NCBI GenBank assembly: GCA_023229435.1
Contig: JALNZF010000012.1
Location: 30,086 to 94,085 of the forward strand
From: Nitrospirota bacterium
GTDB lineage: Bacteria > Nitrospirota > UBA9217
Reading direction: 5' to 3'
Length of the DNA stretch: 64,000 bases
Shown here piece by piece: positions 28,896 to 60,215 of this stretch. Each line of letters opens with the position of its first letter. The stretch's first letter is position 1. The translations under genes and the position numbers were made by a program. Below the pieces are notes generated by a model. That model worked only from the letters and a program-made list of their open reading frames with translations. It made no database searches and was not told the DNA's origin.

Positions 28896-28928
28896 TAGAA
28901 ACATCGTGCGCAATTCATCAGGGGACAA

Positions 28929-37427: not shown

Positions 37428-37430
37428 ACC

Positions 37431-39683: not shown

Positions 39684-39733
39684 GGATGCCTGCGCGAAAA
39701 AACGGATCTCATAGGCGAACATTGGAGAAAAAA

Positions 39734-40324
39734 ATGAAGAACTACAAAAATGGCGGGAACCTTCTTTGCGTGACCGTACTGCTGGCTGTTATCATCACCG
39801 CGGCCGGCTGCAAATCCCAGTCTCTGGAGGTGTATCGGGACCAGAAAATGGACATAGGATCGATCTATACCGTTGCCGTCATGCCTTTGGTGAACCTGTC
39901 GAGGGACCAGATGGCGGCGGAACGGGTGCGGGATGTGTTAATAACCATGCTCCTTGCCGACGGTCGCGTGTACGTGATCCCGACCGGAGAGGTCGCCCGG
40001 CAGGTCTCCATGGTCGGGATCTTGAATCCCTCCCTGCCCACGAACGAAGAGGTCATAAAGCTCGGAAAGGCGCTGAAGGTCCAGGGGATTCTAACCGGAA
40101 TGATTAAGGAATATGGTGACGTGAGAGCGGGCTCAGCTACCGCGAATGTCATATCGATAAGCATGCTGCTGACGGAAGTCGATACCGGGAAGGTCGTCAG
40201 CTCCGTGTCATCCACGAAAGGCGGCATCGGTTTTTTTGAACGCCTTTTCGGCGGAGGCGGCGAACCGATGAACGTTGTTACGACAAAGGCAATTAAGGAT
40301 GTCATCAATAAACTTCTTCAATAA
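39734..40324 (+). CDS. small lipoprotein with CsgG/LpoB/TolB-N-like alpha/beta domain
   Basis: ORF open from 39680. ATG at 39734 preceded by GGAGA. Lipobox ITAAGC. Mature domain IYTVAVMPLVNLSRDQMAAERVRDVLITMLLADGRVYVIP..GILTGMI follows the 'kiAV.PF.N.s......g..la..l...L...g.f.V' pattern of the CsgG/LpoB/DUF799 superfamily. Confidence 0.55.
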   Translation: MKNYKNGGNLLCVTVLLAVIITAAGCKSQSLEVYRDQKMDIGSIYTVAVMPLVNLSRDQMAAERVRDVLITMLLADGRVYVIPTGEVARQVSMVGILNPSLPTNEEVIKLGKALKVQGILTGMIKEYGDVRAGSATANVISISMLLTEVDTGKVVSSVSSTKGGIGFFERLFGGGGEPMNVVTTKAIKDVINKLLQ

Positions 40325-43300
40325 AGAGCGGTTGCTCGTCGTTGCCTGCGCCCTCTGCCTCGTCGGGCATGCGGCCTCCCTGCAACCCGCTTACGCGGTC
40401 GAGACCCTGCGCAAGGCCCCGGCGAAAGTCACCCTGAGTCCTCTCGCTAAGATCCACGAGGGAAGCGCCAGGGCAGGCATGACCATTGCCAGGGCCCCTC
40501 AGGCGATAACGTTTGACCCGCTTGAGACACGGCCCTACAGCAAGACGCCGTTCTTTCTTGCCGCCACGGTTTCCAGCGGCCTCCGCGTCACCTACACAAG
40601 CTCCAATGCCGCTGTCGCAACCGTCAGAGGCAACAAGGTGACGATCACGGGCGTCGGAACGACAGAGATCACTGCCTATCAGCGCGGAAACAGGAACTAC
40701 CATGCGGCGGAGCCGGTAACGCGGGCTCTGACGGTGAACAAGGCCAAAGCCAAAGTCACCCTGAGCCGTCTCGCTCGAACCTACGACGGCGCGCCGAAAT
40801 CCGTCAAGGCCTCGACGAACCCGAAAGGCCTGGTCGTGGGCATCGCCTACGACGGGAATGCCTCGGCGCCCGTCAATGCCGGACGATACACGGTGACAGC
40901 CACGGTCCGGGACGCCAACTACGAGGGAAGCGCCGAGGCCGGCATGATCATAGCGAAGGCGCCTCAGAAGATCGCCTTCAATGCCCCGACCGCGCGGACA
41001 TACGGCGATGCGCCGTTCGATCTGGTTTCCACCTCGTCCAGCGGCCTCACGACAACCTACGCAAGCTCCAATCCCGCTGTCTCGGTCATCAGCGGCAATA
41101 AGGTGACGATCACGGGCGCGGGATCGACCGTGATCACCGCTTTTCAGGGGGGGGACGGCAACTACCTTCCTGCGAAACCAATGCAGCGGATACTGACCAT
41201 TGCGAAGGCGGAACAGACAATTGCGTTCGATGCCCCAACCACCGTGACCTACGGCGTCCTTGATTTTTCTCCCAAGGCATTGGCGAGTTCGGGCCTTCCC
41301 GTGGTCTACGAAAGCTCGGACCCCTCGGTGGCCGTTGTCGTCGGAAACCAGGTCCATATCATCCGCGCCGGCGCATCGACGCTCATTGCGTCGCAGCCGG
41401 GAGACGACAACTATCTCGCGGCAAAGCCGGTAACGCAGGCGCTGACGGTGAACAAGGCCAAAGCCGAAGTCTCCCTCATCGGTCTCGATCAGACCTATGA
41501 CGGCGCACAGAAGCAGGCCGGGGCCAGGACCGAGCCTGAAGGCCTGAGCGTCACCCTGACCTACGACAAGAAGGCAACGGCGCCCGCGAAGGCGGGCAGC
41601 TACGCGGTCATCGGCACGGTTCGGGACACCAACTACGAGGGAAGCGCCACGGCAACGCTGAACATTGCGAAGGCTCCCCAGACGATAGCGTTCGATGCCC
41701 CGGTCACCGTGACCTACGGTGTCGTTGATTTTTCTCCCAAGGCATTGGCGAGTTCGGGCCTTCCCGTGTTCTACGAAAGCTCGGACCCCTCGGTTGCCGT
41801 TGTCATCGGAAACCAGGTCCATATCGTCGGCGCAGGCGCATCGACGCTCACTACATCGCAGCCGGGAGACGACAACTATCTCGCGGCAAAACCGGTAACG
41901 CAGGCGCTGACGGTGAACAAGGCCAAAGCCGAAGTCTCCCTCATCGGTCTCGATCAGACCTATGACGGCGCTCAGAAGCAGGCCGGGGCCAGGACCAAGC
42001 CTGAAGGTCTGAGCGTTACCCTGACCTACGACAACAAGGCAACGGCGCCCGCGAAGGCGGGCAGCTACACGGTCATCGGCACGGTACAAGACGCCAACTA
42101 CGAGGGTAGCGCCACGGCAACGCTGAACATTGCGAAGGCGGGTCAGACGATAGCGTTCGATGCTCTCACAACACGCACCTACGGCGACGGGACGTTCGTC
42201 CTTGCCTCCACGGTGTCGAGCGGCCTTACCGCGAGCTACGGGAGCTCCAATCCGTCTGTCGCGATTATCAGCGGCAACCAGGTGAGAATTGCGGGGGCTG
42301 GAACTGCCGAGATCACTGCCTATCAGGATGGAGATGGCAACTACCTTGCCGCAAAACCGGTGATGCAGGCGCTGACGGTGCATAAGGCCAAAGCCGAAGT
42401 CTCCCTCATTGGTCTCGATCAGACCTATGACGCCACACAGAAGCAAGTCGGGGCCAGGACGGACCCAAAAAACCTGAACGTTGTGTTCCTCTACGACAAT
42501 AATGCAACGGCGCCCGCGAAGGCGGGCAGCTACGCGGTCGTCGGCACGGTACAAGACGCCAACTACGAGGGCAGCGCCTTCGCAACGCTGACCATTGCGA
42601 AGGCCGGCCAGAAGATCGCCTTCGATGCCCCGCTCACCGTTACCTACGGCGACGCCGACTTTTCTCCCGGGGCAAGGGCGAGTTCGGGACTTCCCGTGTT
42701 CTACGAAAGTTCGGACCCGTCAGTGGCCATTGTCGTCGAAAACCATGTCCATATCATCAGCGCGGGCTCATCGGAACTCATTGCGTCGCAGCCGGGAGAC
42801 GACAACCACCTTGCGGCGGCGCCGAAAAAGCGGAAGCTGGCGGTGAAGCGGGCCGCTCAAACGATAACGTTTCCCGCCCTTGAGGCAAGGCCTTACAATA
42901 AGGTCCCGTTCTCTCTTGAAGCCGCGGCGTCCAGCGGCCTGACCGTTGCTTGTGAAAGTTCGAATGACGATGTCGCAACGGTGAACGGCAACCAGGTGAC
43001 GATCAGGGGTGTTGGTACAACGACGATAACGGTGTTTCAGTCAGGGGACGGCAATTATCTGGCAGCAGCCCCGGTGAAGCAGGTCTTGACGGTGCGGAAG
43101 GCCCCCGCAAACGTAACGCTGGGCGCTCTGAAGCACATCTATGACGGGAAGCCGAAATCAGCGGCGAGCGAGACCAGACCGGCCAGACTTTCCGTGACGT
43201 TCACCTACGATGGAAGTGATAAACCGCCGGTCAATGCCGGAAGCTACTCGGTCGCAGCCACTGTCCGGGAAGACAACTACGAGGGGACCGCCACCGGGAC

Positions 43301-45026
43301 GATGACCATCGCGAAGGCCGCCCAGAGGATCACGTTCGATCCCCTGATCACGATGACCTACGGCGACAGGCCGTTCTATCTTTTTTCCGAGGTGTCCAGC
43401 GGTCTCATCCCCGCTTATGAAAGCTCGGGTCCCGCTGTTGCGATCGTGACCGGCTCACGCGTGACGATCGTGGGAGCCGGGACCGCGACCATCACGGCTT
43501 CCCAGGCCGGGGACAACAACCACCTTGAAGCGGAACCGGTGGGGCGGACATTCATCGTGAAAAAGGCCCCTCCGCTGATCACGCTGAACGGTCTGGAGCA
43601 CAGGTATGATGGAACGCCAAAACCGGCTGCAAGCATGACCTCACCCGCCGGCCTCAGCGTGCACATCACCTACGATGGAAATCCGGTTGCCCCCGTCAAG
43701 GCGGGACAATACGAAGTGATTGCCGCGGTCCAGAACCCCAACTATGAGGGAAGTGCGTCAGGCACAATGTCCATAGCCAAGGCGTCCCAAAAGATAAAAT
43801 TACCTGTCCTTGGGGTCAAAACCCTGGGGACCGGACCCTTCGAGCTCCCCGCCGTGCTGCCCAGCGGCCTTGCTGTTGACTACGAAAGCTCCGATCCGAC
43901 CATTGCGACCGTCAGCGGCAACCAGTTGACGGTCAGGGCCGTCGGGACCGCGACGATCACCGCATTTCAGGAGGGGGACGGCAACCACCTGCCGGTAGAG
44001 CCGGTGATGCGGCCGCTGATCGTGCTCGCTCAAAAGCTCCGTATCGTCGTATTTCCCGTGAAAAATCTGAGCGGGAGACCTGCGCCCCTGAAGGAGATCC
44101 GTCAATCGCTCATTGAGGCGCTGGCCCGCCGGGGAGACGTCGTACTCGACGACGAAGCGATGCTGCAGTTCATGACGCGTCACCGCATACGGTATACCGG
44201 CGGCGTCGATATCCTCACGGCCAGGGCGTGGAGGGAAGAGACGGGAACGGAGGCAGTACTCATCGCCTCGGTGGACCAGTATAAAGATTCCGAGGTGCCG
44301 AAGATCTCGCTTACCTGCCGTCTCGTTTCTACCGGGGAGATGCCGCGCATCCTGTGGATGGAGAGCATCGGATTGTCCGGCGACGATTCACCCGGTCTGT
44401 TCGGAAGCGGGTTGATAGGGCAAATCGGGCCCCTCCAGAACAAGGCCATCAAGCAACTCATGGACTCCCTGTCCGCATTCTACGCGGATAGAATATCCCC
44501 CCCGGCGGAAAAGGGCTGGGTCATGGAGGTATTCAAACCAAAGAAGTCCTCTGAAACGCCGTTTATCGATCCCGACCGGACCTACAAGGTCGCTATCATG
44601 CCGTTCTACAACAGTACCAAGAACTCGAATGCCGGCGAGATCCTTGCGCTGCGGTTCATGAGCCAGCTGGTCAAGAACGGGGCCTTTGATGTCCTTGAAC
44701 CCGGCGTGGTCCGGCAGAAGTTCCTGGACTACAGAATCATCATGAATGACGGCATTGCCAGGGCCGATGCGGAAAGTTTTTTTATCAACCAGAAAATGGA
44801 CCTGATTCTTATGGGCAAGATCATCGACTACCAGGAAGGCAATCCAGATATGGAGTTCGAAGTGCAGGTCTATAACAGAAAAAGCAAGTCAATGGCCTGG
44901 TCGTCGTGGAGCTACAATCGCGGCAACGATGCCATGCTCGTGTTCGACTGGAACCGGGTGAGCAACGTCGCAGAACTGGCATCGCAGATGGTAAAGACCA
45001 TTATCCGGGACATGATGACGGAATGA
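40299..45026 (+). CDS. giant (1,575 aa) secreted repeat protein: alternating Ig-like and MBG domains with two C-terminal CsgG/LpoB-like domains
   Basis: ORF open from 40275. The ATG at 40299 gives signal peptide MSSINFFNKERLLVVACALCLVGHAASLQPAYA and overlaps the upstream lipoprotein gene by 26 nt. About 7 units of [Ig-like: TYGD.PF.L.A..SSGL.V.YESSNP.VA.V.GN.V.I.GAG...ITA.Q.GDGNY..A.PV] + [MBG: KA.V.L..L..TYDG..K.........L.V...YDG....P..AG.Y.V.ATV.D.NYEGSA...L.IAKA]. The C-terminal ~330 aa has two CsgG/LpoB-like blocks (LRIVVFPVKNLSGRP..; YKVAIMPFYNSTKNSNAGEILALRFMSQLVKNGAFDVLEP). Confidence 0.75.
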   Translation: MSSINFFNKERLLVVACALCLVGHAASLQPAYAVETLRKAPAKVTLSPLAKIHEGSARAGMTIARAPQAITFDPLETRPYSKTPFFLAATVSSGLRVTYTSSNAAVATVRGNKVTITGVGTTEITAYQRGNRNYHAAEPVTRALTVNKAKAKVTLSRLARTYDGAPKSVKASTNPKGLVVGIAYDGNASAPVNAGRYTVTATVRDANYEGSAEAGMIIAKAPQKIAFNAPTARTYGDAPFDLVSTSSSGLTTTYASSNPAVSVISGNKVTITGAGSTVITAFQGGDGNYLPAKPMQRILTIAKAEQTIAFDAPTTVTYGVLDFSPKALASSGLPVVYESSDPSVAVVVGNQVHIIRAGASTLIASQPGDDNYLAAKPVTQALTVNKAKAEVSLIGLDQTYDGAQKQAGARTEPEGLSVTLTYDKKATAPAKAGSYAVIGTVRDTNYEGSATATLNIAKAPQTIAFDAPVTVTYGVVDFSPKALASSGLPVFYESSDPSVAVVIGNQVHIVGAGASTLTTSQPGDDNYLAAKPVTQALTVNKAKAEVSLIGLDQTYDGAQKQAGARTKPEGLSVTLTYDNKATAPAKAGSYTVIGTVQDANYEGSATATLNIAKAGQTIAFDALTTRTYGDGTFVLASTVSSGLTASYGSSNPSVAIISGNQVRIAGAGTAEITAYQDGDGNYLAAKPVMQALTVHKAKAEVSLIGLDQTYDATQKQVGARTDPKNLNVVFLYDNNATAPAKAGSYAVVGTVQDANYEGSAFATLTIAKAGQKIAFDAPLTVTYGDADFSPGARASSGLPVFYESSDPSVAIVVENHVHIISAGSSELIASQPGDDNHLAAAPKKRKLAVKRAAQTITFPALEARPYNKVPFSLEAAASSGLTVACESSNDDVATVNGNQVTIRGVGTTTITVFQSGDGNYLAAAPVKQVLTVRKAPANVTLGALKHIYDGKPKSAASETRPARLSVTFTYDGSDKPPVNAGSYSVAATVREDNYEGTATGTMTIAKAAQRITFDPLITMTYGDRPFYLFSEVSSGLIPAYESSGPAVAIVTGSRVTIVGAGTATITASQAGDNNHLEAEPVGRTFIVKKAPPLITLNGLEHRYDGTPKPAASMTSPAGLSVHITYDGNPVAPVKAGQYEVIAAVQNPNYEGSASGTMSIAKASQKIKLPVLGVKTLGTGPFELPAVLPSGLAVDYESSDPTIATVSGNQLTVRAVGTATITAFQEGDGNHLPVEPVMRPLIVLAQKLRIVVFPVKNLSGRPAPLKEIRQSLIEALARRGDVVLDDEAMLQFMTRHRIRYTGGVDILTARAWREETGTEAVLIASVDQYKDSEVPKISLTCRLVSTGEMPRILWMESIGLSGDDSPGLFGSGLIGQIGPLQNKAIKQLMDSLSAFYADRISPPAEKGWVMEVFKPKKSSETPFIDPDRTYKVAIMPFYNSTKNSNAGEILALRFMSQLVKNGAFDVLEPGVVRQKFLDYRIIMNDGIARADAESFFINQKMDLILMGKIIDYQEGNPDMEFEVQVYNRKSKSMAWSSWSYNRGNDAMLVFDWNRVSNVAELASQMVKTIIRDMMTE
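41221..42180 (+). repeat. two near-identical 480-bp tandem repeat units inside the giant gene
   Basis: 41221-41700 and 41701-42180 are almost identical at nucleotide level (each encodes one Ig-like + one MBG unit, e.g. KAKAEVSLIGLDQTYDGAQKQAGART.PEGLSVTLTYD). A third, more diverged unit follows (42330-42600). Confidence 0.7.
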
Positions 45027-45203
45027 CGCATGGATCGATACCCCTGAACGATGAGGGGCACGTGCAAGGTGTGGTGTTTTTGAGCAGAGTGTGGTAATAT
45101 TCTCCCTTCCCATGAGGCGAAGGCAGGCATCGCTGAGGGCAAAGGCATTGTCCGGAACATAATGAATGACGGAATGACGCATTAATCAGGAGGTAAGGAA
45201 TAC

Positions 45204-46961
45204 ATGAAAGCAAGGTACGGAGTACTGGGTTTATTCTTATTGTTGGGTATGGTTGCGGGGAGCACGGCATCGGCCCTTGAGGGATCGAAGCCGGCGGTTG
45301 CCAGTCTCGGCACCGGCACGACCGCACCGGAGGGGCCCCAGGTCTTGGTGAGGGCGCCGCTTTTCTCGCCCCTCTTCGAACGGATACCCCTCGCCGCGGT
45401 CAACGGCGATCAGATCACCATGGGTGACGTCGCGAATGCGCTGGTCGCCTCCCATGAAGAACAGGACCCTGCGAAGAAGCAGGGCGGAGGAAAGCTAGAT
45501 TATGGGAAGGTCCTGGACCGGCTCATCAACGTGAGGCTCATCGTACAGGAATCGACCGCGATCGGATTTGACGAGCTGCCCGAATTCAAAGCCTCCGTGG
45601 AGGACTATTCGACGCAGGCCCTCGCAAGGCTCCTGATGCAGGATGCCACGAAGGACGTGAAAGCGGACCCTGCCGAGGTGGAGAAGCGCTATAAAGCCGC
45701 CATGGTAGAATGGAAGATAAAATCGATTTTTTTTGAGAACGAGGACGACGCCAAGAGCATGGCAGATGGGCTGAAGGCGGGAAAGAGCTACGAGGAAATG
45801 GCGGAAAAGGCCATTGCCGATGGAAAAACGAAAGGGGTCCAGGAGGGAAGTTTCGTGAAACCCAAGGATCTGGCCCCTCACATCATGGCGGCGGTTGCCG
45901 CGATGGAGACCGGATCTGTCAGTCCCATCATCAAAGCGCAGGGCGATAAAACCAGCGGATTCACGGTCCTCAAGCTCGTGGAGAAGCGATATCCCGAGAA
46001 CGCCGAGACAAGAGATCAGGTGGAGTGGTCGGTTCTGGCCGAGCAAAGGACCCGGGCGTGGGAGGAGTTCAAGACATCACTCGTAACGAAATACGTGAAG
46101 ATCAATAAAAGGACCCTCGACAAGCTGGACTACGACGGGTCCATCGATAAGTTCCCGCGGCTGCTGGAGGACGAGAGGGTGGTCGCCGAGTTCAAGGGGG
46201 GAAAGCCGATCACCGTCGGCGAGCTTACGCAGGCGCTTCAACAGAAATTCTGGCACGGAGTGGAGGAGGCCGCCAAGTCAAAAAAAATCAACAAGATGAA
46301 ACAGTACACCCTGTCCGAGCTCATCGGGCTGCGCGTAATAGCAAAAGAAACGTCGGAGCGGGACCTCGCTAGGAGAGAGGAATACCTGAAGGAGTTCAAG
46401 CAGTATAAGGACTCAACCCTCTTCGGGCTGTTCGTCGAACGGGTGGTCCTCCCCGACATTAAGGTGACGGAGCCTGACCTGCAGGCGTATTATGAGAAAC
46501 ATAGGCTGGAATTTCAGTACCCGGAGATGGTGAAGATGTCCAGCATCGCCTTCGGGAGCAAGCGCGCTGCCGAGGCCGTCCGCGCGAAGCTGGCAAAGGG
46601 CACGGACCTCGCCTGGGCGAGGAGCAACGCGGAGGGAGTCGCGGGCAAGAGCGAGGACGACCCCCTCTCCTCCCTGAACGGAAGCATCCTGTCCGTGAGA
46701 AGCCTGCCCCCCGGCATGGCCAAGGCCGTCTCAGGGAGCCACGCGGGAGAGTACCTGCTCTATGAAGGGTCCGAGGACCGGTTCTACGTTCTGTCCATCG
46801 AGGCGATCATACCCGCGAGGCAGCAGCCTTATGATGAGGTCAAGGAGGAGTTTCGGGAGAAGGTCTTTCAGGAAAAGTTCATCCAGGCGATGGATGACTG
46901 GTTTTCCAAGCTTAGATCGGCCAGCAAGGTAACGGTCTATCTTTCGGAAACAGGGAAATAA
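45204..46961 (+). CDS. periplasmic SurA/PpiD-like chaperone (parvulin-type PPIase-like)
   Basis: 585 aa. AGGAGG RBS. Signal peptide. N-terminal SurA-N-like segment (AAVNGDQITMGDVANALV). The C-terminal region has a degenerate PpiC/parvulin-like block (MVKMSSIAF..KRAAEAVRAKLAKGTDLAWARSNA). Sits immediately upstream of the two large multiheme cytochromes. Confidence 0.5.
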   Translation: MKARYGVLGLFLLLGMVAGSTASALEGSKPAVASLGTGTTAPEGPQVLVRAPLFSPLFERIPLAAVNGDQITMGDVANALVASHEEQDPAKKQGGGKLDYGKVLDRLINVRLIVQESTAIGFDELPEFKASVEDYSTQALARLLMQDATKDVKADPAEVEKRYKAAMVEWKIKSIFFENEDDAKSMADGLKAGKSYEEMAEKAIADGKTKGVQEGSFVKPKDLAPHIMAAVAAMETGSVSPIIKAQGDKTSGFTVLKLVEKRYPENAETRDQVEWSVLAEQRTRAWEEFKTSLVTKYVKINKRTLDKLDYDGSIDKFPRLLEDERVVAEFKGGKPITVGELTQALQQKFWHGVEEAAKSKKINKMKQYTLSELIGLRVIAKETSERDLARREEYLKEFKQYKDSTLFGLFVERVVLPDIKVTEPDLQAYYEKHRLEFQYPEMVKMSSIAFGSKRAAEAVRAKLAKGTDLAWARSNAEGVAGKSEDDPLSSLNGSILSVRSLPPGMAKAVSGSHAGEYLLYEGSEDRFYVLSIEAIIPARQQPYDEVKEEFREKVFQEKFIQAMDDWFSKLRSASKVTVYLSETGK

Positions 46962-46991
46962 CATCTTGAACACTATGATCAGGAGATAACG

Positions 46992-48956
46992 ATGCAAAAC
47001 GTTTCGATAAAACAGCGCGTCTTTGCCCTTGGAGCGGTCTTTTTTCTGTGCGTTTTCCTGCATGCCGCGATCGGGACGGCGGCGCAGCAATCCGCCCGCA
47101 AGGATTGTCTGGACTGCCACACCAAGTTCTCGGAAAAGTATCTCGGGATGAAAAATGTTCATGCTGTCGTGAAGGAGAAACATTGCGAGGGCTGCCATCT
47201 CCGCCACGGCCTCGTGGCCAGACTGATCCTCAAGCAGGTCGGGAACGAGCTCTGCCAGTCCTGTCACACGAAGGACAAGATGGGCATGAAGCCGATCGTG
47301 CATACGGCCCTGAAGGGGGGGAAATGCACGGACTGCCACAACCCGCACGCCTCCCCGATGGACCATCTGTTGAAGGTGGAGGGAAAGGATCTGTGCTATC
47401 AATGTCACAAAAAAGAGGACTATGAAAAGAAAACAGTGCACGCGGTCCTGAATACAAAGGGCTGCGCCGCCTGTCACTCTTCCCACAGCGCTGACGAGAA
47501 GAACCTCCTCGTCAAGCCGGAGACGCCCCTCTGCCTGTCCTGCCACGACAGCGGCAATTCCGCGTTCAGGAAGGCCCATGGTACGTATCCCGTGCAGACG
47601 AAAACCTGCACAACCTGCCATAATCCCCACTCCTCGGACCAGCCGAAGCTCCTGAAGACGAGCGCGCACAACCCCGTCGTCACCGCGAGCTGCGACATGT
47701 GCCATAACGCGCCGAATACCGACAAGGCCTTCGGCGTGAAGGAAGGCGCCATCGGCGCTCTCTGCGGCCAGTGTCATATGTCCGACGACCTGAAGGCAGG
47801 CGGCACGGTGGAGCACATGCCCTTTAAGGACGGGATGTGCGACCAATGTCATAATCCCCACGCCTCGGAGAACCCCAAGCTTCTGAATAAAAGCGTCAAC
47901 AAGCTCTGTTTCGACTGTCATGCGGACAAAGGGGCACGGGTTGCCTTCCCCCATGCGGCTGTCGAACAAGGGTGCCTGTCCTGTCATCTGCCCCATGCCG
48001 CAAAGAACGAGCGGTTGCTGAGGGCAAAGACGAGCGACATCTGCTTCACCTGTCACGAGAAAGTGAAGGAGGCGCAGAAAGCCAAGCACGTCCATTCGCC
48101 CTTCGCCGAGGCCATGTGCACCACATGCCATAATCCGCACGGTTCGAACTTCCCGCTCATGTCCAGCAACGGCATGGACAAGACCTGCTACTCGTGCCAC
48201 AACGACGCGGAGACGGGATTTGCGAAAAAAACCGTCCATGCGCCTGTGCGGGAAGGACGGTGCCAGTCGTGCCATGACGGCCACGGCTCATCAGAGGGGA
48301 AGATGCTCATAGCCCCTGCGGGGCCGAAACTCTGCGGACAGTGCCACGGCGACCTTATGAAAGAGTCAAAGGACAATATCGTCCATCAACCCTTCGGGAA
48401 AGGCCTTTGCCTGGATTGCCACTCCCCCCATGCCAGCGACAACGCGGGTATGATCGTCAAGGACCAGGGGTCCCTCTGTCTTACCTGCCACGCGGCAATG
48501 GGGAAGCAGATCAAGTCGTCCGCGGATGTGCATAAACCCATTGAGACCGGCATGTGTACGAAGTGTCACAGCCCCCACCAGGCGAAGCTTGCCAAACTGT
48601 TGTTGGCGCAGTCGCCTGATATCTGCCTCGCCTGCCACAAGGACCTGAAGGAGCGGATAGAGAAGGAGAACAAGCACCAGCCCGCAGCGGGCGACTGCCT
48701 GACCTGCCACCTGCCGCACCTGTCGTCGCAGCGGAGGCTGCTCTCCGACGCGGTGCCGTCGCTCTGCCTCCAATGCCACGAAGCAACGGCAGCTTCATTC
48801 AGGAAGGCCCACATCAATATTGACGCCGCCGTTATGGAGTGCACAAGCTGCCATGACCCCCATGCGTCAAAGGACCCGAAGTTATTCAAGAAACATGTGC
48901 ATGCCCCCTTTGCGGGCAGATCATGCGATGAATGTCACATCGTAAAAACACAATAG
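46992..48956 (+). CDS. multiheme c-type cytochrome, ~26 CXXCH motifs (doubled-CXXCH type)
   Basis: 654 aa. GGAGA RBS. Signal peptide. I count 26 CXXCH motifs, mostly in the periodic C..CH.PH(A/S)S pattern (CTDCHNPHAS, CTTCHNPHSS, CDQCHNPHAS, CLDCHSPHAS, CTSCHDPHAS). Confidence 0.85.
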   Translation: MQNVSIKQRVFALGAVFFLCVFLHAAIGTAAQQSARKDCLDCHTKFSEKYLGMKNVHAVVKEKHCEGCHLRHGLVARLILKQVGNELCQSCHTKDKMGMKPIVHTALKGGKCTDCHNPHASPMDHLLKVEGKDLCYQCHKKEDYEKKTVHAVLNTKGCAACHSSHSADEKNLLVKPETPLCLSCHDSGNSAFRKAHGTYPVQTKTCTTCHNPHSSDQPKLLKTSAHNPVVTASCDMCHNAPNTDKAFGVKEGAIGALCGQCHMSDDLKAGGTVEHMPFKDGMCDQCHNPHASENPKLLNKSVNKLCFDCHADKGARVAFPHAAVEQGCLSCHLPHAAKNERLLRAKTSDICFTCHEKVKEAQKAKHVHSPFAEAMCTTCHNPHGSNFPLMSSNGMDKTCYSCHNDAETGFAKKTVHAPVREGRCQSCHDGHGSSEGKMLIAPAGPKLCGQCHGDLMKESKDNIVHQPFGKGLCLDCHSPHASDNAGMIVKDQGSLCLTCHAAMGKQIKSSADVHKPIETGMCTKCHSPHQAKLAKLLLAQSPDICLACHKDLKERIEKENKHQPAAGDCLTCHLPHLSSQRRLLSDAVPSLCLQCHEATAASFRKAHINIDAAVMECTSCHDPHASKDPKLFKKHVHAPFAGRSCDECHIVKTQ

Positions 48957-48966
48957 AGGAGCACGT

Positions 48967-50298
48967 ATGAAACTTCGAACCAGTATCGTCATAGTGGCCC
49001 TGTCGGTAATATGCGCCGGTCCCGCGCCCCAGGCTTATGCGGCGAAGACGGCAAAACCGGTGAAGGCCGCGGAGGCAAAGAAAGCAGGCACTGAAACCAT
49101 CGAGAGCAAATTCAACCTGAAGCCGGGCGCCGCTCAAAAGGTCTGCCTGACGTGCCACCCCCAATTCGAGGACCTGCTGAAAAAGCCCTCGGTCCATACC
49201 CCCCTGAAGAGCCCGGGCTGTATCGCCTGTCACAGCCCCCACGCGTCAAATTTTCCGAAGCAGCTTTCGGCGGAAGTGGGCACGATCTGCCTGACGTGCC
49301 ATGCCGGCATCATGCCGAAGGGCGCGCGCAGCACCCACAAGGTCGCTCTTGAAGGCAAGTGCGTTTCGTGCCACGATCCGCACGCTTCGGACAACAAGAA
49401 CAACCTGCGCAAGGCGGGAAACGAACTGTGTTTCGATTGCCACAAGGACAAGGGCGAAGAGATCAAGCAGCTGAAGTTCAAACACTCTCCGGTGGAGAAA
49501 GGGTGCATAAACTGCCATAATCCGCACGCTGCAACGAAGGCGGCTTCCCTCCTGAAAAGCGAGGTCCCGGAACTGTGCAAAGAGTGCCATGATACAAAGA
49601 AGCCCCTCTTCGTCAAGCAGCACATGAATTATCCCGTGGCGAACACACGGTGCACCATATGCCACAGCGCGCACGGCTCGAACCGTGCCGGGCTCATCTA
49701 TGACACGGCCCACAAGCCCTTCGCGAGCAAGAGCTGCAACCTGTGCCATGAAGGCCCGACAGCTCCGAACCCGATCGCGTTGAAGAAAACGGGTTTTGAA
49801 TTATGCAGGGGGTGCCACAACAATTCGATCAACGACATGTTATCCAAGAACCGCCTCCATTGGCCGGTGCTGGGAAAGGACGGCTGTCTTAATTGTCATA
49901 ATCCGCACGCGTCGCCGCAGGCGGGCCTCCTGAGAAAGGCGCCGGTCCAGCTGTGCGGCGGCTGCCATGCGGACACGATCCGACGCCAGGAGCTGTCGGT
50001 GACGAAGCATAAGCCGATAAAGGACGGGCAGTGCATGTCGTGCCATGTCCCCCATGCCTCCGACAACACCTATTTGTTCATCCAGGCATCGCCGGTGGAT
50101 TTGTGCGGGACCTGCCACGACTATATGAAACATTCGACCCATCCGGTCGGTGAAAAGGTGATCGACAAGAGAAACAAGAACCTGACCGTGCAATGCCTGA
50201 GCTGTCATCGGGCGCACGGCACGGAATTCAAAAAAATGCTGCCCTTCGGGACCGTAGCTGAACTTTGCACGCAATGCCATACTGAATATAAGAGGTGA
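48967..50298 (+). CDS. multiheme c-type cytochrome, ~16 CXXCH motifs
   Basis: 443 aa. AGAGGAG RBS. Signal peptide (..AGPAPQAYA). 16 CXXCH motifs with the same C..CH.PHAS periodicity (CIACHSPHAS, CVSCHDPHAS, CINCHNPHAA, CLNCHNPHAS, CMSCHVPHAS). Confidence 0.85.
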   Translation: MKLRTSIVIVALSVICAGPAPQAYAAKTAKPVKAAEAKKAGTETIESKFNLKPGAAQKVCLTCHPQFEDLLKKPSVHTPLKSPGCIACHSPHASNFPKQLSAEVGTICLTCHAGIMPKGARSTHKVALEGKCVSCHDPHASDNKNNLRKAGNELCFDCHKDKGEEIKQLKFKHSPVEKGCINCHNPHAATKAASLLKSEVPELCKECHDTKKPLFVKQHMNYPVANTRCTICHSAHGSNRAGLIYDTAHKPFASKSCNLCHEGPTAPNPIALKKTGFELCRGCHNNSINDMLSKNRLHWPVLGKDGCLNCHNPHASPQAGLLRKAPVQLCGGCHADTIRRQELSVTKHKPIKDGQCMSCHVPHASDNTYLFIQASPVDLCGTCHDYMKHSTHPVGEKVIDKRNKNLTVQCLSCHRAHGTEFKKMLPFGTVAELCTQCHTEYKR

Positions 50299-50302
50299 AA
50301 CC

Positions 50303-51211
50303 ATGCGAGGAAACCCTGTGATGCGATACGCTGCATTGATGATTCTGCTCCTGCTGCCCATGCACGCCTTCGGGGAGGAACAGCAGATACGATTTAAACA
50401 TGACCGTTCACTCTATGCCGACGACAAGGGAGGCGGTTTGAACCAGCCGGAGGGCGTCGCCTGCAGCAAAAATCGACTGGTGGTCGCGGATAGCGGAAAC
50501 GGCAGGCTCGTCCTCTACTCGATCGTCGACGGCGAACCCCGGGGAGGAACGGAGATCCGTCTTCCCCAGGTGGTCTATCCCGCGCGCGTTGCGATGAACA
50601 CGAAAGGAGACCTGTATGTGCTCGACGCGCGGCAGCGAAAGATCGCGCGTCTCACCGCGGAAGGGGTCTTTCAGCACTACGTTGACCTGGCGAGCGGACC
50701 GACCGTGGCCATGGTTGTTCCCGCCGGCTTAAGCCTTGACGGCAATGACAATCTCTATGTGCTCGACATCGGCGGTGGAAGGATCATGGTCTTCGGGGAC
50801 GATGGAAAGTTTCAGCGGCAGATCTCCCTTCCGAAGGAGTATGGTTTCATCACCGACCTCGCCGTGGACGCGAAGGGGACGATTTTCCTGATCGACAGCG
50901 TCAGCGCCATTGTATATTCAAATGCCAAAGCCCCGGCGGTTTTCGCGCCGATCACCGCAACATTGAAAGACGACTTGAAATTCGCCTCGAACATTGTAGT
51001 AGATAACAAGGGACTCCTGTTCATCAGCGATCAAAACGGCGGCGGCGTCCTCGCGGTGAACCAGGACGGAACAAGCCGGAGGCTTTTCAGTTTGGGATGG
51101 AAGGAAGGAATGCTCCGGTATCCCTCGCAGCTCTGCATCAATCCGGACGGCGATCTGTATGTCGCGGACAGGGCAAACAGCCGGATCCAGCAGTTTACAC
51201 CGCTAAAATAG
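50303..51211 (+). CDS. NHL-repeat beta-propeller protein
   Basis: 302 aa. Signal peptide. Repeated NHL-type blades (P.GVA......VVADSGN.R.V.Y; DLYVLDARQRKIARL; NLYVLDIGGGRIMVF; LFISDQNGGGVLAVN; DLYVADRANSRIQQF). Confidence 0.65.
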   Translation: MRGNPVMRYAALMILLLLPMHAFGEEQQIRFKHDRSLYADDKGGGLNQPEGVACSKNRLVVADSGNGRLVLYSIVDGEPRGGTEIRLPQVVYPARVAMNTKGDLYVLDARQRKIARLTAEGVFQHYVDLASGPTVAMVVPAGLSLDGNDNLYVLDIGGGRIMVFGDDGKFQRQISLPKEYGFITDLAVDAKGTIFLIDSVSAIVYSNAKAPAVFAPITATLKDDLKFASNIVVDNKGLLFISDQNGGGVLAVNQDGTSRRLFSLGWKEGMLRYPSQLCINPDGDLYVADRANSRIQQFTPLK

Positions 51212-51444: not shown

Positions 51445-53268
51445 ATGATACGTCTGTTTCGCAAAACCCACATTATACCTGCGCTGATCTTCCTCGTCGG
51501 GTTCCTGGCGTACGCGAACACGTTCACGGTCCCCTTTCAGTTCGATGACGACGCCTATATCGTCAACAACCCGATCATCAGGACATTCCACTATTTTTTT
51601 GCCCCATCGGAAGTAACCGGCCTTACGGAGCGCACCCCGACGGCCGTCCCCCCCGCATTACGCTATGCCTTCATGACCCGCATGCTGGGGTATTTCACGT
51701 TTGCCGTCAACTATCACCTGCACGGCCTGGACGTGATCGGCTATCACGCGGTGAATCTGGCGATCCACCTTCTGAACGGTATGTTCGTCTTCCTGATTCT
51801 CAGGACCACCCTGAAAAGAGTCCGCTTCACGGATGCAGCCGCCGAGAGGATTAAGCACGAAGATTTCTTCGCGGGCAGCATCGCGCTGCTCTTCGTGAGC
51901 CACCCGATCCAGACCCAGGCCGTAACCTATATTTCACAGCGCTTTGCGTCGCTGGCGGCCTTCTTCTACCTTCTGTCGTTCCTTCTGTACCTCCGCTCCT
52001 GCCTGTCTTCGGCCGGACGATGGCGAACGGCGGCCTATGGCGGCGCCCTCGTTTCCGCCGTCGCCGCAATGCTGACCAAGGAGTTCACTATTACCCTGCC
52101 GCTCATGCTGGCGCTGTACGATATAACCTTCCTTCCGGGAAGCATGCGAGACCGGATCAGGAGACTTGCGCCCTTTGCAGCCACCCTCGCGATCATCCCG
52201 GCGCTGGTGTTCATCCAGCAGGGCACGCTGCATGACCTGGACAGTACCATGCGGACCATTACCGCGGCTGATTCGAGCAACATCCCCCGGGGGCACTATC
52301 TCCTGACCCAGTTCCGCGTCGTGGCGCTCTACCTCAGGCTGCTCTTCATTCCTCTGGGGCAGAACATCGACCACGACGTCCCGGTTTATACCTCGCTCTT
52401 TGCACCCGCAGTTCTATTTTCGTTCCTGCTGCTGCTTCTCCTCATTGCCGCCGCGCTGTGGCTCTACGTTGTCTCGAAAAGGAAGCCCGGGCATCCGGAG
52501 CTCATGCTGGCGGCCTTCGGGATACTCTGGTTCTTCATCACCCTGTCGGTTGAATCAAGCATCATCCCCCTGGGCGAGCTGGCGGCCGAATACCGGCTTT
52601 ATCTTCCATCGATCGGCATCAGCATGGCTGTTGTCTCGCTCGGTCATTACGCAGCAAAAATGTTTTCGCTGCGACCTTCCTTCCTGTACGGCGCGTGCGC
52701 GCTGGTCGTCATTGCGTTGTCAACTGCATCCTCGCTGAGAAACACGGTTTGGGCCAGCGAAACCGCGCTCTGGGAAGACGCGGCCCGAAAAAGTCCCGCG
52801 AGGGTGCGGCCTCATCAGAACCTCGGAACGTATTACGGAACGCAGGGACGCCTGGAGGATGCAAAACGAGAGCTGCTGGCCGCCCTGGCGCTGGCGCCGG
52901 CGGATTTTGAACTGCACAACAACCTTGGAGTGATATATAAGCGAATGGGATTATTCGACGAAGCCGAGAGAGAATACACGATTGTGCTCAAGCTTTCTCC
53001 CGGCGACGTCATGGCCCGCTACAACCTGGGGAATGTTTACCTGGCTCAAGGGAAAGTACCGGAGGCCATCCGGGAATACGAGTTGACGGTGAAACTCATT
53101 CCAGACTACGACGAGGCCCATAACAACCTCGGCATTGCCTATCAGAAGAGCGGGCAGTTCGACGCGGCGATCCGCGAATTCAACCGGGCGCTGCAGCTCA
53201 ACCCTCAAAATGAACATGTCCGCAGGAACCTCGAAGCTGCCGTCAGAAAATTGTCCCTGCCGCACTGA
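51445..53268 (+). CDS. TMTC-like TPR membrane protein (paralog); in-frame TGA followed by further TPR-coding sequence
   Basis: 607 aa. Motifs: FQFDDDAYIVNNP, HGLDVIGYHAVNLAIH, HPIQTQAVTYISQR, AAEYRLYLPSIG, then TPRs. After the TGA at 53266-53268 the same frame stays open for 65 codons encoding a clean TPR (HYNLGVVLAAQEKLHDAEKYFQEALRINPNYSDALSALE) up to a TGA at 53462. Confidence 0.75.
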   Translation: MIRLFRKTHIIPALIFLVGFLAYANTFTVPFQFDDDAYIVNNPIIRTFHYFFAPSEVTGLTERTPTAVPPALRYAFMTRMLGYFTFAVNYHLHGLDVIGYHAVNLAIHLLNGMFVFLILRTTLKRVRFTDAAAERIKHEDFFAGSIALLFVSHPIQTQAVTYISQRFASLAAFFYLLSFLLYLRSCLSSAGRWRTAAYGGALVSAVAAMLTKEFTITLPLMLALYDITFLPGSMRDRIRRLAPFAATLAIIPALVFIQQGTLHDLDSTMRTITAADSSNIPRGHYLLTQFRVVALYLRLLFIPLGQNIDHDVPVYTSLFAPAVLFSFLLLLLLIAAALWLYVVSKRKPGHPELMLAAFGILWFFITLSVESSIIPLGELAAEYRLYLPSIGISMAVVSLGHYAAKMFSLRPSFLYGACALVVIALSTASSLRNTVWASETALWEDAARKSPARVRPHQNLGTYYGTQGRLEDAKRELLAALALAPADFELHNNLGVIYKRMGLFDEAEREYTIVLKLSPGDVMARYNLGNVYLAQGKVPEAIREYELTVKLIPDYDEAHNNLGIAYQKSGQFDAAIREFNRALQLNPQNEHVRRNLEAAVRKLSLPH

Positions 53269-53680: not shown

Positions 53681-54631
53681 TTAATGACAGGCAAAACATA
53701 GAGTCTTGAACTTTGCATATACGGTGGCGGTTCCGTTAGCATGCTGTGCTGCTGCGGCTGAATTAATCTGGTAACCATGGCCACCCGAACTGAGAGCGAT
53801 CGGCACATAATTAGGATACGGTTTTGTCGGGTCGTTATGGCAAAGCTCGCAATCATTGGGACCAGGACCAGCTCCGAGATTCTGACTGTTGGCGTGGTTG
53901 CCACTATGCCAGGGGTAGTAATTATTATTATAGGAAGATGGATTACCGTGGCAAGCCGTGCAGCCCACACCTGTTGCATACCAAGATGGCGTATTCCCAA
54001 CGATATTTCCACCATAAGGCGCCGTCTTCAGTTCAGGTATCGGATATCCATCCGCGTCCATTTCATTGCCGGGCATGTAATAGCTGAACGTGCCGGCCTT
54101 AACACCATGGCAAGCAATGTTCGAGCAAGTCTTGGATGCCGCATCAAAGGACGGTGGTGTGCCGGTGCCGGTGGCCGGTCCGGCCGGATTGAAGCATAAG
54201 ATGCCGCCGACCATGTGACAAATCGAGCAAGCGAAACCGGCATGTTTGGGATGCGCGCCTGTTCCGTCGCTTGTCACGCAAGGCGCGCTCCTGACTTCGT
54301 CCTGGGTCATTGACCTGTTGTTGACGTTAGGCAGAGACGATGTTGTGTTCGCGCTCTGACTCGCATAATAATCGTCGACGGTATTGTCGTGAGGTACCCA
54401 TTGATTGCCATCATAGATGTATGTCCGGTTATCGGCCTTGCTGAAAAAACGCTGGCCAAATACGGCGTTGAGCGGGGTCCCTTCTATTTGCGGAGCTGTT
54501 GTATTATTCCCCGGCTGCCAATGCCCTTTGTCAGAGCTGGAACCACATCCCGGACCGAGCAGAATTGCCGCTGCAATCAATGACACAAGAGCAGCAACAA
54601 CTACAAAAATACTTACATTTAATTTTTTCAT
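53681..54631 (-). CDS. multiheme c-type cytochrome (4 CXXCH + 1 CX4CH motif)
   Basis: ORF open to 54664. ATG at 54631 has a perfect AAGGAG RBS at 6-nt spacing (minus strand). Signal peptide MKKLNVSIFVVVAALVSLIAAAILLG. Motifs CSICH, CTACH, CELCH, CFACH plus CSNIACH (CX4CH, as in some cytochromes c3). Confidence 0.7.
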   Translation of the reverse strand: MKKLNVSIFVVVAALVSLIAAAILLGPGCGSSSDKGHWQPGNNTTAPQIEGTPLNAVFGQRFFSKADNRTYIYDGNQWVPHDNTVDDYYASQSANTTSSLPNVNNRSMTQDEVRSAPCVTSDGTGAHPKHAGFACSICHMVGGILCFNPAGPATGTGTPPSFDAASKTCSNIACHGVKAGTFSYYMPGNEMDADGYPIPELKTAPYGGNIVGNTPSWYATGVGCTACHGNPSSYNNNYYPWHSGNHANSQNLGAGPGPNDCELCHNDPTKPYPNYVPIALSSGGHGYQINSAAAAQHANGTATVYAKFKTLCFACH

Positions 54632-55110
54632 GAGCTTCTCCTTAATTATGAAGATAGAATCCAACTGCTCCTACCTTATGGTTATCGTGAGATCGCCTTC
54701 GCGCTGTCCCTGGAGCCACGCGTGTAACTCCAGAAACGATATCCCTCTTTAAGCCTGCTCTGCGGTCAGCAGAGCGAATGATCACCGACGGTTTTATTGG
54801 GGATCGAAAACGAACTGCAGAGCGGACAAGCGCATCTTTGTCCAGACGCCCGATGAAAGTGACTTTGTCTGCTATCGCGAAAAGAGGAGGCCATACAAGC
54901 CATCCAGACAATCGCGAGCTGATCAGGCATGAGGACGCACGACGCCTACCCGATTGCGGCATGAGAATCAGATACAAAACATCATGGTTTTATAATGAAT
55001 GAACCGGCGTAAAAACATTAGCAATTTATTTATATCAGCAATTGGCCATTTTGTAAAGATAAAAAACGGTTATATTTGAACAGCTCAAAGCACATAAAAC
55101 GATGAACACA

Positions 55111-56253
55111 TCAGTCTCTGATATGACACTTATTGCAGAGACCTCTCTGGGAACCGGCAAACCGGGTGACCGGCCTGTCATAGTATGCCTTCTGTGTCTC
55201 AGCCTCGGTGCGCCCCTGTGCATTCCTTGCAGGCGAACCATTATTGTTCCCGGGGTAAACACTATTTTGCACGATAAACTCCGATGCCATATTCCATCGT
55301 GCCAGATGGTCCCAGGCGGAAGCGTGCGCCCGGTGACAGGTGAGACACATCACATTGGAACCAAAACCAGGCCCCATGGTGTAAGTGCCGTTGTTTTTTG
55401 CATGCTGCTCGAGGACCATCCGGTCGTCAGTCCCTTCCTCAAACGGAACCAGCGCGGTATAGGAAGCATCGCCCTTCCCATTGATGTCACCTGATTTCAC
55501 ATAGGCGTTGTAATTGGAAATGATCTCGTTCGTACACTGGGCGCCATTGCAGACAGGGTGTCCGTAAGCTCCGGTACAACCGTTCATGTGGCAATTTGAA
55601 CACCATTCAGACATCCCCCTGCCATAGGCGACCCTTGTGTCTGTTACCGCCTCAGACCTGTTGTAGTCACGTGGTGCAACAGCAACCGGCGCAGCAACAG
55701 TGAAAGGCATCCCCGGCGCTGACCTCGTTGTATAGCCGATCCCGCCCAGAAGACGATAGGCGCTGGTGGCAATGTTGCCGTGCGGATCATGGCAGCTGAT
55801 ACAGGAAAGCGCGCTGCTGGGATATGTTCCGCCCGGTGTTGTGCTATGCCTGCTGTCCGCTTGATACCCATAGTCTAGCGCAACAATATTATGGCCATGC
55901 CGTTCGCCCGGGCTGTCCTGTGTGGACCCCGATTCTTTCCAGGAATAGCTCTTTTTTAAATAGCCGAAGTCTCCGCCGGGAGTCATCTGTGAGGGCGGCA
56001 TACCCGCTCCTAAATCGTGCCCATTGGACGCACTGTAATGGCCAATGGGTCTCCGGGTGCCCATCGGCGCTTGATGGCATCGAAGACAGACGGAACCTGC
56101 ATCGGACCCGCGCAACGCGCCCTTCTCGTCCTCATGACATTCCCTGCACTCTCCGGCGCCTCCTGCATGAAAGGCTTCTCCTGTGCGGGGGATACAAAGT
56201 GCAAGGAAGAATGCCATGAGAAAAACAACATATGACCTGAAACCAGGCTCCAT
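55111..56253 (-). CDS. OmcS-like hexaheme c-type cytochrome, divergent subtype
   Basis: ORF open to 56295. The ATG at 56253 (MEPGFRSYVVFLMAFFLALCIPRTGEA|FHAGGAGECRECHEDEKG) has an AAGGAG RBS. Six CXXCH (CRECH, CLRCH, CISCH, CSNCH, CLTCH, CNKCH). Family blocks GGDFGYLKKSYSWK, GHNIVALDYGY, CISCHDPHGN, AYRLLGG, WCSNCH, CLTCHRAHASAWDHL, CNKCHIRD. Confidence 0.75.
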   Translation of the reverse strand: MEPGFRSYVVFLMAFFLALCIPRTGEAFHAGGAGECRECHEDEKGALRGSDAGSVCLRCHQAPMGTRRPIGHYSASNGHDLGAGMPPSQMTPGGDFGYLKKSYSWKESGSTQDSPGERHGHNIVALDYGYQADSRHSTTPGGTYPSSALSCISCHDPHGNIATSAYRLLGGIGYTTRSAPGMPFTVAAPVAVAPRDYNRSEAVTDTRVAYGRGMSEWCSNCHMNGCTGAYGHPVCNGAQCTNEIISNYNAYVKSGDINGKGDASYTALVPFEEGTDDRMVLEQHAKNNGTYTMGPGFGSNVMCLTCHRAHASAWDHLARWNMASEFIVQNSVYPGNNNGSPARNAQGRTEAETQKAYYDRPVTRFAGSQRGLCNKCHIRD

Positions 56254-56370
56254 GCTGCTCCTTAAAAAACCGCGACAGAACAATGTGATACACATTCACT
56301 GTTCAATCGTTCTTGTCCTGTTGACCCTGTTGCACCCAGGTAAGTATGGTAAAGCATCATCATTCGTCCA

Positions 56371-60097: not shown

Positions 60098-60215
60098 ACT
60101 GCTCCTTAACCGTTGCAAGAGAACGATGTCATGCTCATTCTCCGTTCGTTCATCCTGGTTCCATTGACCATGATGAACACAGGTGAGTGCCGTAATCATC
60201 ATGATCAGTACTCTC

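Follow-up and report, generated by a model that had tools for sequence, protein, structure and literature searches.

A probable osc (omcS-companion) cluster and its predicted split 42-heme cytochrome unit in a Nitrospirota genome

The closest described system to the locus presented here is the osc (omcS-companion) cluster of Geobacter sulfurreducens, GSU2493-GSU2501/2504, which was reported by Shen et al. 2025 (Cell Chem Biol 32:239) and is outlined in papers that cite that work (PMC13194489; bioRxiv 10.1101/2025.11.06.686851). As summarized there, OscH serves in the folding, OscEFG in the secretion and OscD in the morphology of OmcS nanowires (PMC13194489, citing Shen et al. 2025), and the GSU2500-GSU2493 block is "linked to OmcS nanowire maturation and secretion", with carriers that include Geobacter sp. 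H2geo, G. luticola and Citrifermentans bremense (bioRxiv 10.1101/2025.11.06.686851). The names oscC, oscI and oscJ are given to GSU2501, GSU2495 and GSU2494, respectively (PMC13194489), and GSU2495 is characterized as a 26-heme cytochrome of ~70 kDa also present in G. bemidjiensis (PMC2996986; bioRxiv 10.1101/2025.11.06.686851). Here we analyze a 64,000-nucleotide stretch of a Nitrospirota bacterium (the window; lineage UBA9217, assembly GCA_023229435.1, contig JALNZF010000012.1, positions 30,086 to 94,085), in which a conserved D-E-F-G-H-I-J-K gene order, a 26-heme OscI and homologues of OmcS lead us to conclude that four genes at 45204-51211 are most likely the OscH-OscK end of this already described cluster. 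The original prediction had cast these four genes as likely components of an extracellular electron-transfer conduit; an electron-transfer role in the envelope is reasonable, and the set is part of the osc cluster rather than an unassigned or novel conduit. The cluster itself is of a known kind, and what is new is the splitting and fusion of a 42-heme unit, the near-invariant counts of 26 and 16 hemes and the conserved pairing with an NHL-repeat protein.

Gene order and identity of the OscH-OscK block

Inspection of the plus strand reveals an OscH-like periplasmic parvulin-type peptidyl-prolyl isomerase (PPIase)/chaperone of 585 residues (45204-46961), an OscI-like 26-heme MtrA-type periplasmic cytochrome of 654 residues (46992-48956), an OscJ-like 16-heme cytochrome of 443 residues (48967-50298) and an OscK-like NHL-repeat beta-propeller of 302 residues with a signal peptide (50303-51211). 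Pfam matches and motif counts agree with the identities and the order first assigned to them. The genes are co-directional and separated by 30, 10 and 4 nt, the open reading frame (ORF) coordinates bearing out the 10-nt distance claimed for the two cytochrome genes, and an AGGAG-like Shine-Dalgarno site precedes each. Each protein starts with a basic N-region ahead of a hydrophobic core, and AXA-type cleavage is predicted at ASA/L in OscH (a cleavable signal peptide ending ...STASA/LEG), AIG/T in OscI, AYA/A in OscJ and AFG/E in OscK. All four products bear Sec-type export signals, and both observations that the original prediction had named as damaging to it, missing signal peptides and CXXCH motifs within transmembrane segments, fail to appear. 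That is to say, a scan of all four proteins found no transmembrane-like segment beyond the signal peptide, and placement of the CXXCH motifs in the membrane was rejected because the signal peptide is the only hydrophobic segment. Consensus scans for promoters and terminators inside the block returned counts equal to shuffle expectation and gave no separation of the OscH-OscK genes, so internal signals of either type were likewise rejected.

The whole osc cluster occupies ~32.5-51.2 kb of the window and comprises two OmcS-family hexaheme genes, OscD, OscE, OscF, OscG and OscH-OscK. The two hexaheme genes (32564-33868 and 34389-35684, both on the plus strand) match OmcS (6ef8_A) over the full length in phmmer searches with E-values of 2e-128 and 8e-133, and on this similarity they are identified as the OmcS/OscC-like cargo of the cluster. 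These matches, together with a barrel model for a 750-residue protein described below, uphold the co-localization with OmcS-like genes and an outer-membrane barrel that had been proposed. Gene content and order are the same as in the G. sulfurreducens osc cluster, with OmcS-family hexaheme(s), a propeller, a ~740-aa barrel, an LpoB-like lipoprotein, OscG, a PPIase, the cytochromes and an NHL protein; OscI, with an apo-protein mass of 68 kDa, and GSU2495, a protein of ~70 kDa, both carry 26 hemes. The window differs in its host, a Nitrospirota metagenome-assembled genome (MAG), in a ~1160-aa N-terminal MBG_3/Big_2 extension of OscG, in carrying a pair of OmcS-like genes ahead of the block and another beyond it on the opposite strand, and in a membrane TPR protein after OscK with ~10 paralogues upstream.

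Conservation was assessed in 80 genome loci fetched with an alignment of 26-heme homologues, G. sulfurreducens not being among them; the ORFs of each locus (numbered with the prefix L) were labelled by phmmer with the window proteins, and 85 loci enter the counts. The order OscH, 26-heme cytochrome, 16-heme cytochrome, OscK is exact in 54 of the 85, OscD-E-F-G-H-I are contiguous in 49, and most exceptions to the order are contig ends or frameshifted ORFs. An OmcS-family hexaheme gene occurs in 57 of 83 loci. The carriers span Nitrospirota, Thermodesulfobacteriota, Geomonas, Citrifermentans bremense, Geobacter sp. H2geo, G. luticola, Rokubacteria, Acidobacteriota, Anaeromyxobacter, Malonomonas and others. 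The closest loci belong to Nitrospirota MAGs, with 57-66% identity for the 26-heme protein, and the gene order of the window recurs in the Geobacter lineage in H2geo (L032), G. luticola (L047) and C. bremense (L033). Identity to the Geobacter-lineage loci amounts to 54-55% for OscI and 56-59% for OscJ, followed by OscF (50-55%), OscC (45-54%), OscD (41-46%), OscK (41-44%), OscH (36-40%) and OscE (26-34%); as judged from these alignments, no other protein of the cluster is as well conserved as OscI and OscJ. Across OscD-OscJ (36000-50000) the GC fraction stands at 0.56-0.61, compared with 0.49-0.55 in most other parts of the window. Taken with the 54-59% identity of OscI and OscJ between Nitrospirota and the Geobacter lineage, the raised GC suggests horizontal spread of the block.

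The two proteins that flank the cytochromes each belong to a recognizable fold class. OscH gives a Rotamase_2 score of 91 bits in two stretches and a weak Rotamase match in Pfam, its sequence relatives in the PDB are Cbf2/PEB4-like 3rfw and HP0175 (5ez1), and it is 100% identical to an NCBI protein annotated "MAG: Nitrospirae bacterium". The proposed SurA-like chaperone is borne out insofar as the protein is exported and has two parvulin domains; because it scores below cutoff against all NCBIfam PPIase equivalog hidden Markov models (e.g. 61 versus 303, 51 versus 493), the sequence evidence makes it SurA-like in architecture and not an orthologue of SurA, PpiD or PrsA. Its gene lies directly upstream of the 26-heme gene in at least 54 loci. 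OscK scores 86.6 bits against Pfam NHL (cutoff 20), and its residues 41-298 align with six-bladed NHL propellers in the PDB (TRIM71, Pizza6). The OscK gene follows OscJ, or a fused 42-heme gene as introduced below, at a gap of 0-40 nt or with overlap, and an NHL gene comes after the C-terminal end of the cytochrome in nearly all clusters examined, including 42-heme clusters without a PPIase.

Heme content and the 42-heme unit

A regular-expression search returns exactly 26 CXXCH motifs in OscI and 16 in OscJ, as had been predicted, at spacings of 22-30 residues and with no CX3CH, CX4CH or CXXCK variants in either protein. By chance, 0.37 CXXCH motifs are expected from the proteins' own Cys and His composition and ~0.001 from an ordinary composition. 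Pfam resolves the two chains into 13 (E 3e-143) and 8 (E 3e-88) Paired_CXXCH_1 units, respectively. A periodic C..CH.PH(A/S)S spacing, also claimed for both cytochromes, is present but does not extend to every heme: the full motif occurs at 5 of 26 sites in OscI and 4 of 16 in OscJ, C..CH.PH at 9 of 26 and 5 of 16, and C..CH..H at 12 of 26 and 7 of 16. It marks one heme in some pairs, not all hemes. With 57 histidines in OscI and 32 in OscJ there are enough for bis-His ligation at every heme. Mature OscI measures ~626 aa, or 24 aa per heme, with a mass of ~84 kDa including hemes, and mature OscJ has 26 residues per heme. Throughout 43 OscI homologues all 26 CXXCH motifs and the second His of 24 of the 26 hemes are invariant, and the second histidines H196 and H514 are at least 90% conserved.

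Profile, sequence and structure comparisons relate both chains to MtrA. Against TIGR03508, the DmsE/MtrA decaheme family (cutoff 192.2), OscI scores 297.8 bits and OscJ 198.9 bits, sums that run over 5 and 3 repeated partial stretches. The family describes ten hemes in ~300-350 aa, whereas OscI holds 26 hemes in 654 aa and OscJ 16 in 443 aa; the two are built of MtrA-like modules, yet they are not decahemes. The sole PDB sequence relative of OscI found by phmmer is 6r2q_A, which we take to be the decaheme MtrA from the MtrCAB complex of Shewanella baltica. In the PDB table this chain is labelled "Cystathionine beta-synthase" and in the fold library the entry reads "Structure of the Mtr complex", so that the molecule name is misleading. 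An AlphaFold2 model of OscI from a 43-sequence alignment (predicted local distance difference test score, pLDDT, 89; predicted template-modelling score, pTM, 0.69) contains only short helices and bridges, as would be expected for a peptide-minimised heme chain, and a Foldseek search of the PDB with this model yields a single significant match, again 6r2q_A (E 8e-8, TM-score 0.55 on the target). OscI and OscJ thus appear to be MtrA/DmsE-type, peptide-minimised heme chains with bis-His ligation throughout.

This kinship bears on where the cytochromes reside. They had been presented as extracellular; with Sec signal peptides, no lipobox and MtrA/DmsE-like character, both are instead predicted to be periplasmic. 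OscI of the window and of the Geobacter lineage has a plain signal peptide, and the idea that the window protein is a lipoprotein was rejected on finding that its FFLC motif is not a lipobox. Elsewhere a lipobox occurs in at least 16 of 82 OscI homologues and in more when YAC-type sites are included, which amounts to about a fifth to a third of the homologues. Lipobox-type N-termini (LAGC, SSC) are found in L007, L015, L017, L034, L038, L041, L043-L045, L050, L051, L057 and L060, and YAC-type sites in L013, L014, L018, L020-L022 and L026. All of these N-termini, lipobox-bearing or not, carry a basic motif, (K/R)(K/R)F..(K/R)K(D/E), directly before the first heme Cys.

Heme counts gather at discrete values in the 120 database proteins most similar to the 26-heme cytochrome, with 28 carrying 26 hemes (~650-700 aa) and 71 carrying 42 (~1060 aa). 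The count of 26, which had been called uncommon, is therefore a fixed number within the family, and its treatment as a peculiarity of the source genome was rejected since 26 is the family norm. For OscJ, the second cytochrome, the count is 16 in almost all complete loci. The spacings between successive CXXCH motifs in the 42-heme proteins are those of OscI followed by those of OscJ, and the signatures "...25, 28" at the OscI end and "...30, 24" at the OscJ end recur in both forms. In blastp comparisons with eight 42-heme proteins, the best high-scoring segment pair of OscI covers hemes 1-26 in 8/8 and that of OscJ hemes 27-42 in 8/8 (26-42 in one). In-register identity reaches 47-52% for the fused proteins inside osc clusters (L054, L068) and 31-38% for the other six, compared with about 27-36% out of register overall and about 30-34% for L054 and L068. 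Redundant tandem paralogy of OscI and OscJ was rejected on these grounds, as each protein matches its own register best, by a wide margin in the osc-cluster fusions. The mature N-terminal motif of OscJ, KLKPGAxxKxC, is kept at the junction of some fused proteins (as KLKPGAxGKxC, most clearly in L054), and the OscJ signal peptide is absent from the junction of all of them.

Spacing identity, collinear alignment and fixed counts together mark OscI and OscJ as two halves of one conserved device; on this sequence evidence, the pair is best described as a 42-heme unit divided between two genes, where other lineages use a single gene. The single-gene Paired_CXXCH cytochromes (~1060 aa; Zixibacteria and other uncultured lineages) resemble OscI-OscJ in collinearity and in spacing fingerprint, and they usually have an NHL gene after them, with OscE/F-like genes and small cytochromes nearby. 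They differ in being one polypeptide, in the frequent absence of the PPIase and in a conserved 43-residue spacer that follows heme 21 in a Zixibacteria-type subgroup. In the osc-like clusters L005, L054 and L068 the fused gene lies between the PPIase and NHL genes. In L088, L089 and L090 the 42-heme gene stands near OscE/F-like genes and small cytochromes, without a PPIase, and the NHL gene is retained, as the next gene downstream, with overlap, in L089 and L090 and at a distance of a few genes in L088. A 155-aa protein without a Pfam hit is encoded directly upstream of the Zixibacteria-type 42-heme genes on two unrelated contigs (L003, 9524-9991; L090, 7516-7983).

OscJ is broken in some loci. 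In L014, L015, L067 and L069 it is split into two ORFs whose hemes sum to 16 (9+7, 11+5) or fewer, and these are either assembly frameshifts or real pseudogenes; a frameshift in oscJ of G. sulfurreducens KN400 (PMC13194489) is a parallel case. Such lesions are what one would look for if the cytochrome pair were an evolutionary passenger with little present function in the source organism. We regard that explanation as highly improbable: both genes are intact in the window, with all 42 heme motifs and enough additional histidines for bis-His ligation, OscI and OscJ are the cluster's best-conserved proteins across phyla, and the four broken copies come from MAG assemblies, in which frameshifts are often sequencing errors.

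The outer-membrane barrel and the remaining cluster genes

Between the hexaheme genes and OscH lie four further genes of the cluster, all on the plus strand. An OscD-like YNCE-type beta-propeller lipoprotein (36027-37427) matches Pfam YNCE and Lactonase, has a lipobox-like LLTSGC sequence and is conserved in position. It is followed by OscE, a large outer-membrane beta-barrel protein (37431-39683; 750-aa ORF, gene call of 738 aa from 37467), which lies three genes upstream of OscI and not adjacent to it. No Pfam domain is found in OscE, and its AlphaFold2 model (43-sequence alignment, pLDDT 84.9) shows ~28-30 long antiparallel strands with an inserted domain at ~273-420. Foldseek places MtrB (6r2q_B) first with a TM-score of 0.32-0.35, with TonB-dependent transporters, ushers and LptD nearly equal, and all scores are low (0.2-0.35). 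The model suggests that OscE is a large outer-membrane barrel outside any solved family.

OscF, an LpoB-fold lipoprotein (Pfam LpoB; 39680/39734-40324), and OscG, a protein of 1583 aa (40275/40299-45026; Pfam MBG_3, 478 bits), follow, with gene calls taken from L001. The ~1160-aa MBG_3/Big_2 repeat extension of OscG lies N-terminal to a ~400-aa part common to other loci; the last 420 residues are homologous to OscG proteins of 365-490 aa elsewhere, and long forms also occur in L008, L010, L015, L023, L054, L062 and L065. An antisense ORF of 749 aa (40305-42554) is probably spurious, a product of the GC-rich repeats here.

These genes invite comparison with the Shewanella MtrCAB complex (PDB 6R2Q). 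OscI is MtrA-like by profile, sequence and predicted fold, OscE is modelled as a large barrel with MtrB as its top structural match, and a multiheme extracellular partner, of the OmcS family, is encoded alongside. The earlier idea that the 26-heme protein may reach from the periplasm to the cell surface draws some support from the MtrA-like model of OscI and the first rank of MtrB among the matches of OscE. In contrast to MtrCAB, OscI and OscJ hold 26 and 16 hemes versus 10 in MtrA, OscE has ~28-30 predicted strands and an inserted domain versus a 26-strand MtrB porin, and the extracellular partner is a polymerising hexaheme and not an MtrC-type decaheme lipoprotein; the PPIase, the NHL and YNCE propellers and the LpoB-like lipoprotein have no Mtr counterpart. 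The cluster would work like the MtrCAB family and is not a member of it, because the cytochromes depart from the ten-heme definition. The Geobacter Pcc (OmaB/OmbB/OmcB) and ExtABCD systems likewise place a periplasmic peptide-minimised multiheme cytochrome near an outer-membrane barrel gene, but with 8-12 hemes, as against 26 and 16 in OscI and OscJ, and paired with a lipoprotein surface cytochrome. Within the osc block of the window there is no lipoprotein multiheme cytochrome, so the block is not a Pcc/Ext conduit, a distinction made on gene content and heme number. Desulfovibrio ferrophilus IS5, compared by description, combines periplasmic multiheme cytochromes, NHL propellers and extracellular cytochromes in DFE_448-451 and DFE_461-465, with cytochromes of 12 and 14 hemes versus 26 and 16 here, and its propellers were proposed to stabilise an outer-membrane cytochrome complex (PMC5815863).

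The same comparisons raise the possibility of a self-contained Mtr/Pcc-type conduit, not far from the original prediction, in which OscI/J threads OscE and passes electrons directly to surface cytochromes or minerals, electron export being the main function, with no need for OmcS filament assembly. The only structural relative of OscI is MtrA, and the top match of OscE is MtrB of the same complex; moreover, 42-heme and NHL genes occur with an OscE/F-like pair and small cytochromes in the absence of a PPIase, and for D. ferrophilus it was proposed that the cytochrome and NHL clusters make up an outer-membrane cytochrome complex whose partner in the periplasm is MtrA-like (PMC5815863). Set against this are the low and near-equal Foldseek scores of MtrB and other large barrels, a heme number far beyond what crossing the outer membrane needs (MtrA uses 10, and here there are 42), the OmcS-family gene found in 57 of 83 loci and a block that lacks an OmcB/MtrC-type surface decaheme lipoprotein. 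The published genetics, as cited in PMC13194489, also place OscEFG in OmcS secretion. We therefore hold a stand-alone conduit to be conceivable and would not favor it.

Downstream of OscK, a multi-pass membrane protein with C-terminal TPR repeats (51445-53268, plus strand; TPR Pfam match, eight transmembrane-like segments) is of uncertain membership in the cluster. The same type comes directly after OscK in L004, L027, L031, L036, L054 and L067; in L009, L071, L080 and L085 it lies one or two genes beyond that position. It is related to a tandem array of ~10 paralogous proteins of 530-690 aa at 11379-30557 (plus strand), with another related copy at 937-2691 (minus strand). C-terminal TPR repeats are common to most members of the array, and a PMT_2-like GT-C glycosyltransferase domain is present in at least one (18737-20398). 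The TPR paralogues may have a link to the osc cluster as glycosylation factors for the envelope or for cytochromes. Further heme proteins lie beyond: a 327-aa protein with 4 CXXCH motifs and a CxxxxCH-domain match (53681-54664, minus strand), the third OmcS-like gene, with six CXXCH (55111-56295, minus strand), a c7-type protein with six CXXCH (56721-57860, plus strand) and a Paired_CXXCH protein (58955-60217, minus strand). Elsewhere in the window, two adjacent paralogues of ~1005 aa each have a central spermine/spermidine-synthase domain (4964-7981 and 8057-11071, minus strand), and a BglII-family restriction endonuclease gene (62917-63576, plus strand; Pfam E 2e-48) adjoins a histone-deacetylase-family gene (61573-62499).

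A possible periplasmic heme cable

A structural wire of defined length accounts better than a diffusible carrier for the strict heme number, the high conservation and the lipid anchor that OscI has in some lineages. The mechanism that we prefer, and infer, is that OscI and OscJ may act as a periplasmic cable of fixed length that feeds an OmcS filament. The ten hemes of MtrA span ~8 nm in the 6R2Q structure, and by analogy a 42-heme cable would extend ~30-40 nm, comparable to the periplasm. OscI and OscJ would dock end to end into a single long chain of hemes, and the OscK propeller would dock onto or cap the C-terminal end of OscJ. OscH would fold very proline- and heme-rich clients, namely OmcS and possibly OscI/J themselves. 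Electrons would then travel along the cable through the periplasm and reach the base of an OmcS-type filament at the OscE barrel or OscEFG channel. In its most explicit form, OscI-OscJ-OscK would be a 42-heme cable with its inner end at the cytoplasmic membrane, lipid-anchored in some lineages, and its NHL-capped outer end plugged into OscE under the filament, an arrangement that we offer tentatively.

Several observations weigh against a cable. Literature searches on OscI, OscJ and OscK yielded gene names only, and the functions stated in the papers that cite Shen et al. 2025 cover OscD, E, F, G and H only (PMC13194489; bioRxiv 10.1101/2025.11.06.686851). Orthology to the GSU genes was set through other Geobacter-lineage genomes. 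One 42-heme gene, in Zixibacteria (L003), stands alone without osc-like neighbours. The small periplasmic cytochromes PpcA-E are credited with charging OmcS nanowires (Portela et al. 2024, PMC10954620), in a paper that makes no mention of the osc cluster, and on that basis a dedicated cable is not required by current models. Finally, PMC13194489 reports the oscJ frameshift both in KN400 and in long-term anode-evolved descendants, with high current still produced, which indicates that a complete OscJ is dispensable, at least on anodes.

The last two observations would also suit a different role, in which OscI/J is a soluble periplasmic electron reservoir or redox buffer for filament biogenesis that stands outside the steady-state path, with OscK as an assembly co-factor; for example, OscI/J could keep OmcS subunits or hemes reduced during OscH-assisted folding and export. 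The plain signal peptides of OscI and OscJ in the window and the Geobacter lineage, with no lipid anchor, agree with a soluble state, as does the position of the cytochrome genes directly 3' of the OscH folding factor, often in translational coupling, with a link to folding. A reservoir, however, would have no need of a strict heme number or of a split point that is conserved and matched by collinear fusions, at least 16 of the 82 OscI homologues have a lipobox that would tether one end to a membrane, and pairs of 42-heme and NHL genes are kept in clusters that have no PPIase. On balance we think a reservoir role rather unlikely.

The proposed cable matters because the electrical link of cytochrome nanowires to the respiratory chain is still debated. 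The split of the 42-heme unit, its near-invariant count from Nitrospirota to Geobacter and Acidobacteriota and the NHL pairing allow a periplasmic cable of defined length to be put forward as a testable hypothesis. Finding a complete osc cluster in an uncultured Nitrospirota lineage is also relevant to the question of which bacteria in the environment are able to make OmcS-type nanowires. If the most explicit form of the cable is true, an unbroken chain of hemes would lead in these organisms from the quinol pool to a nanowire of micrometre length, and the cluster would represent a new class of porin-cytochrome conduit with a polymer as its extracellular partner, in which the heme count would serve as a ruler for the width of the periplasm.

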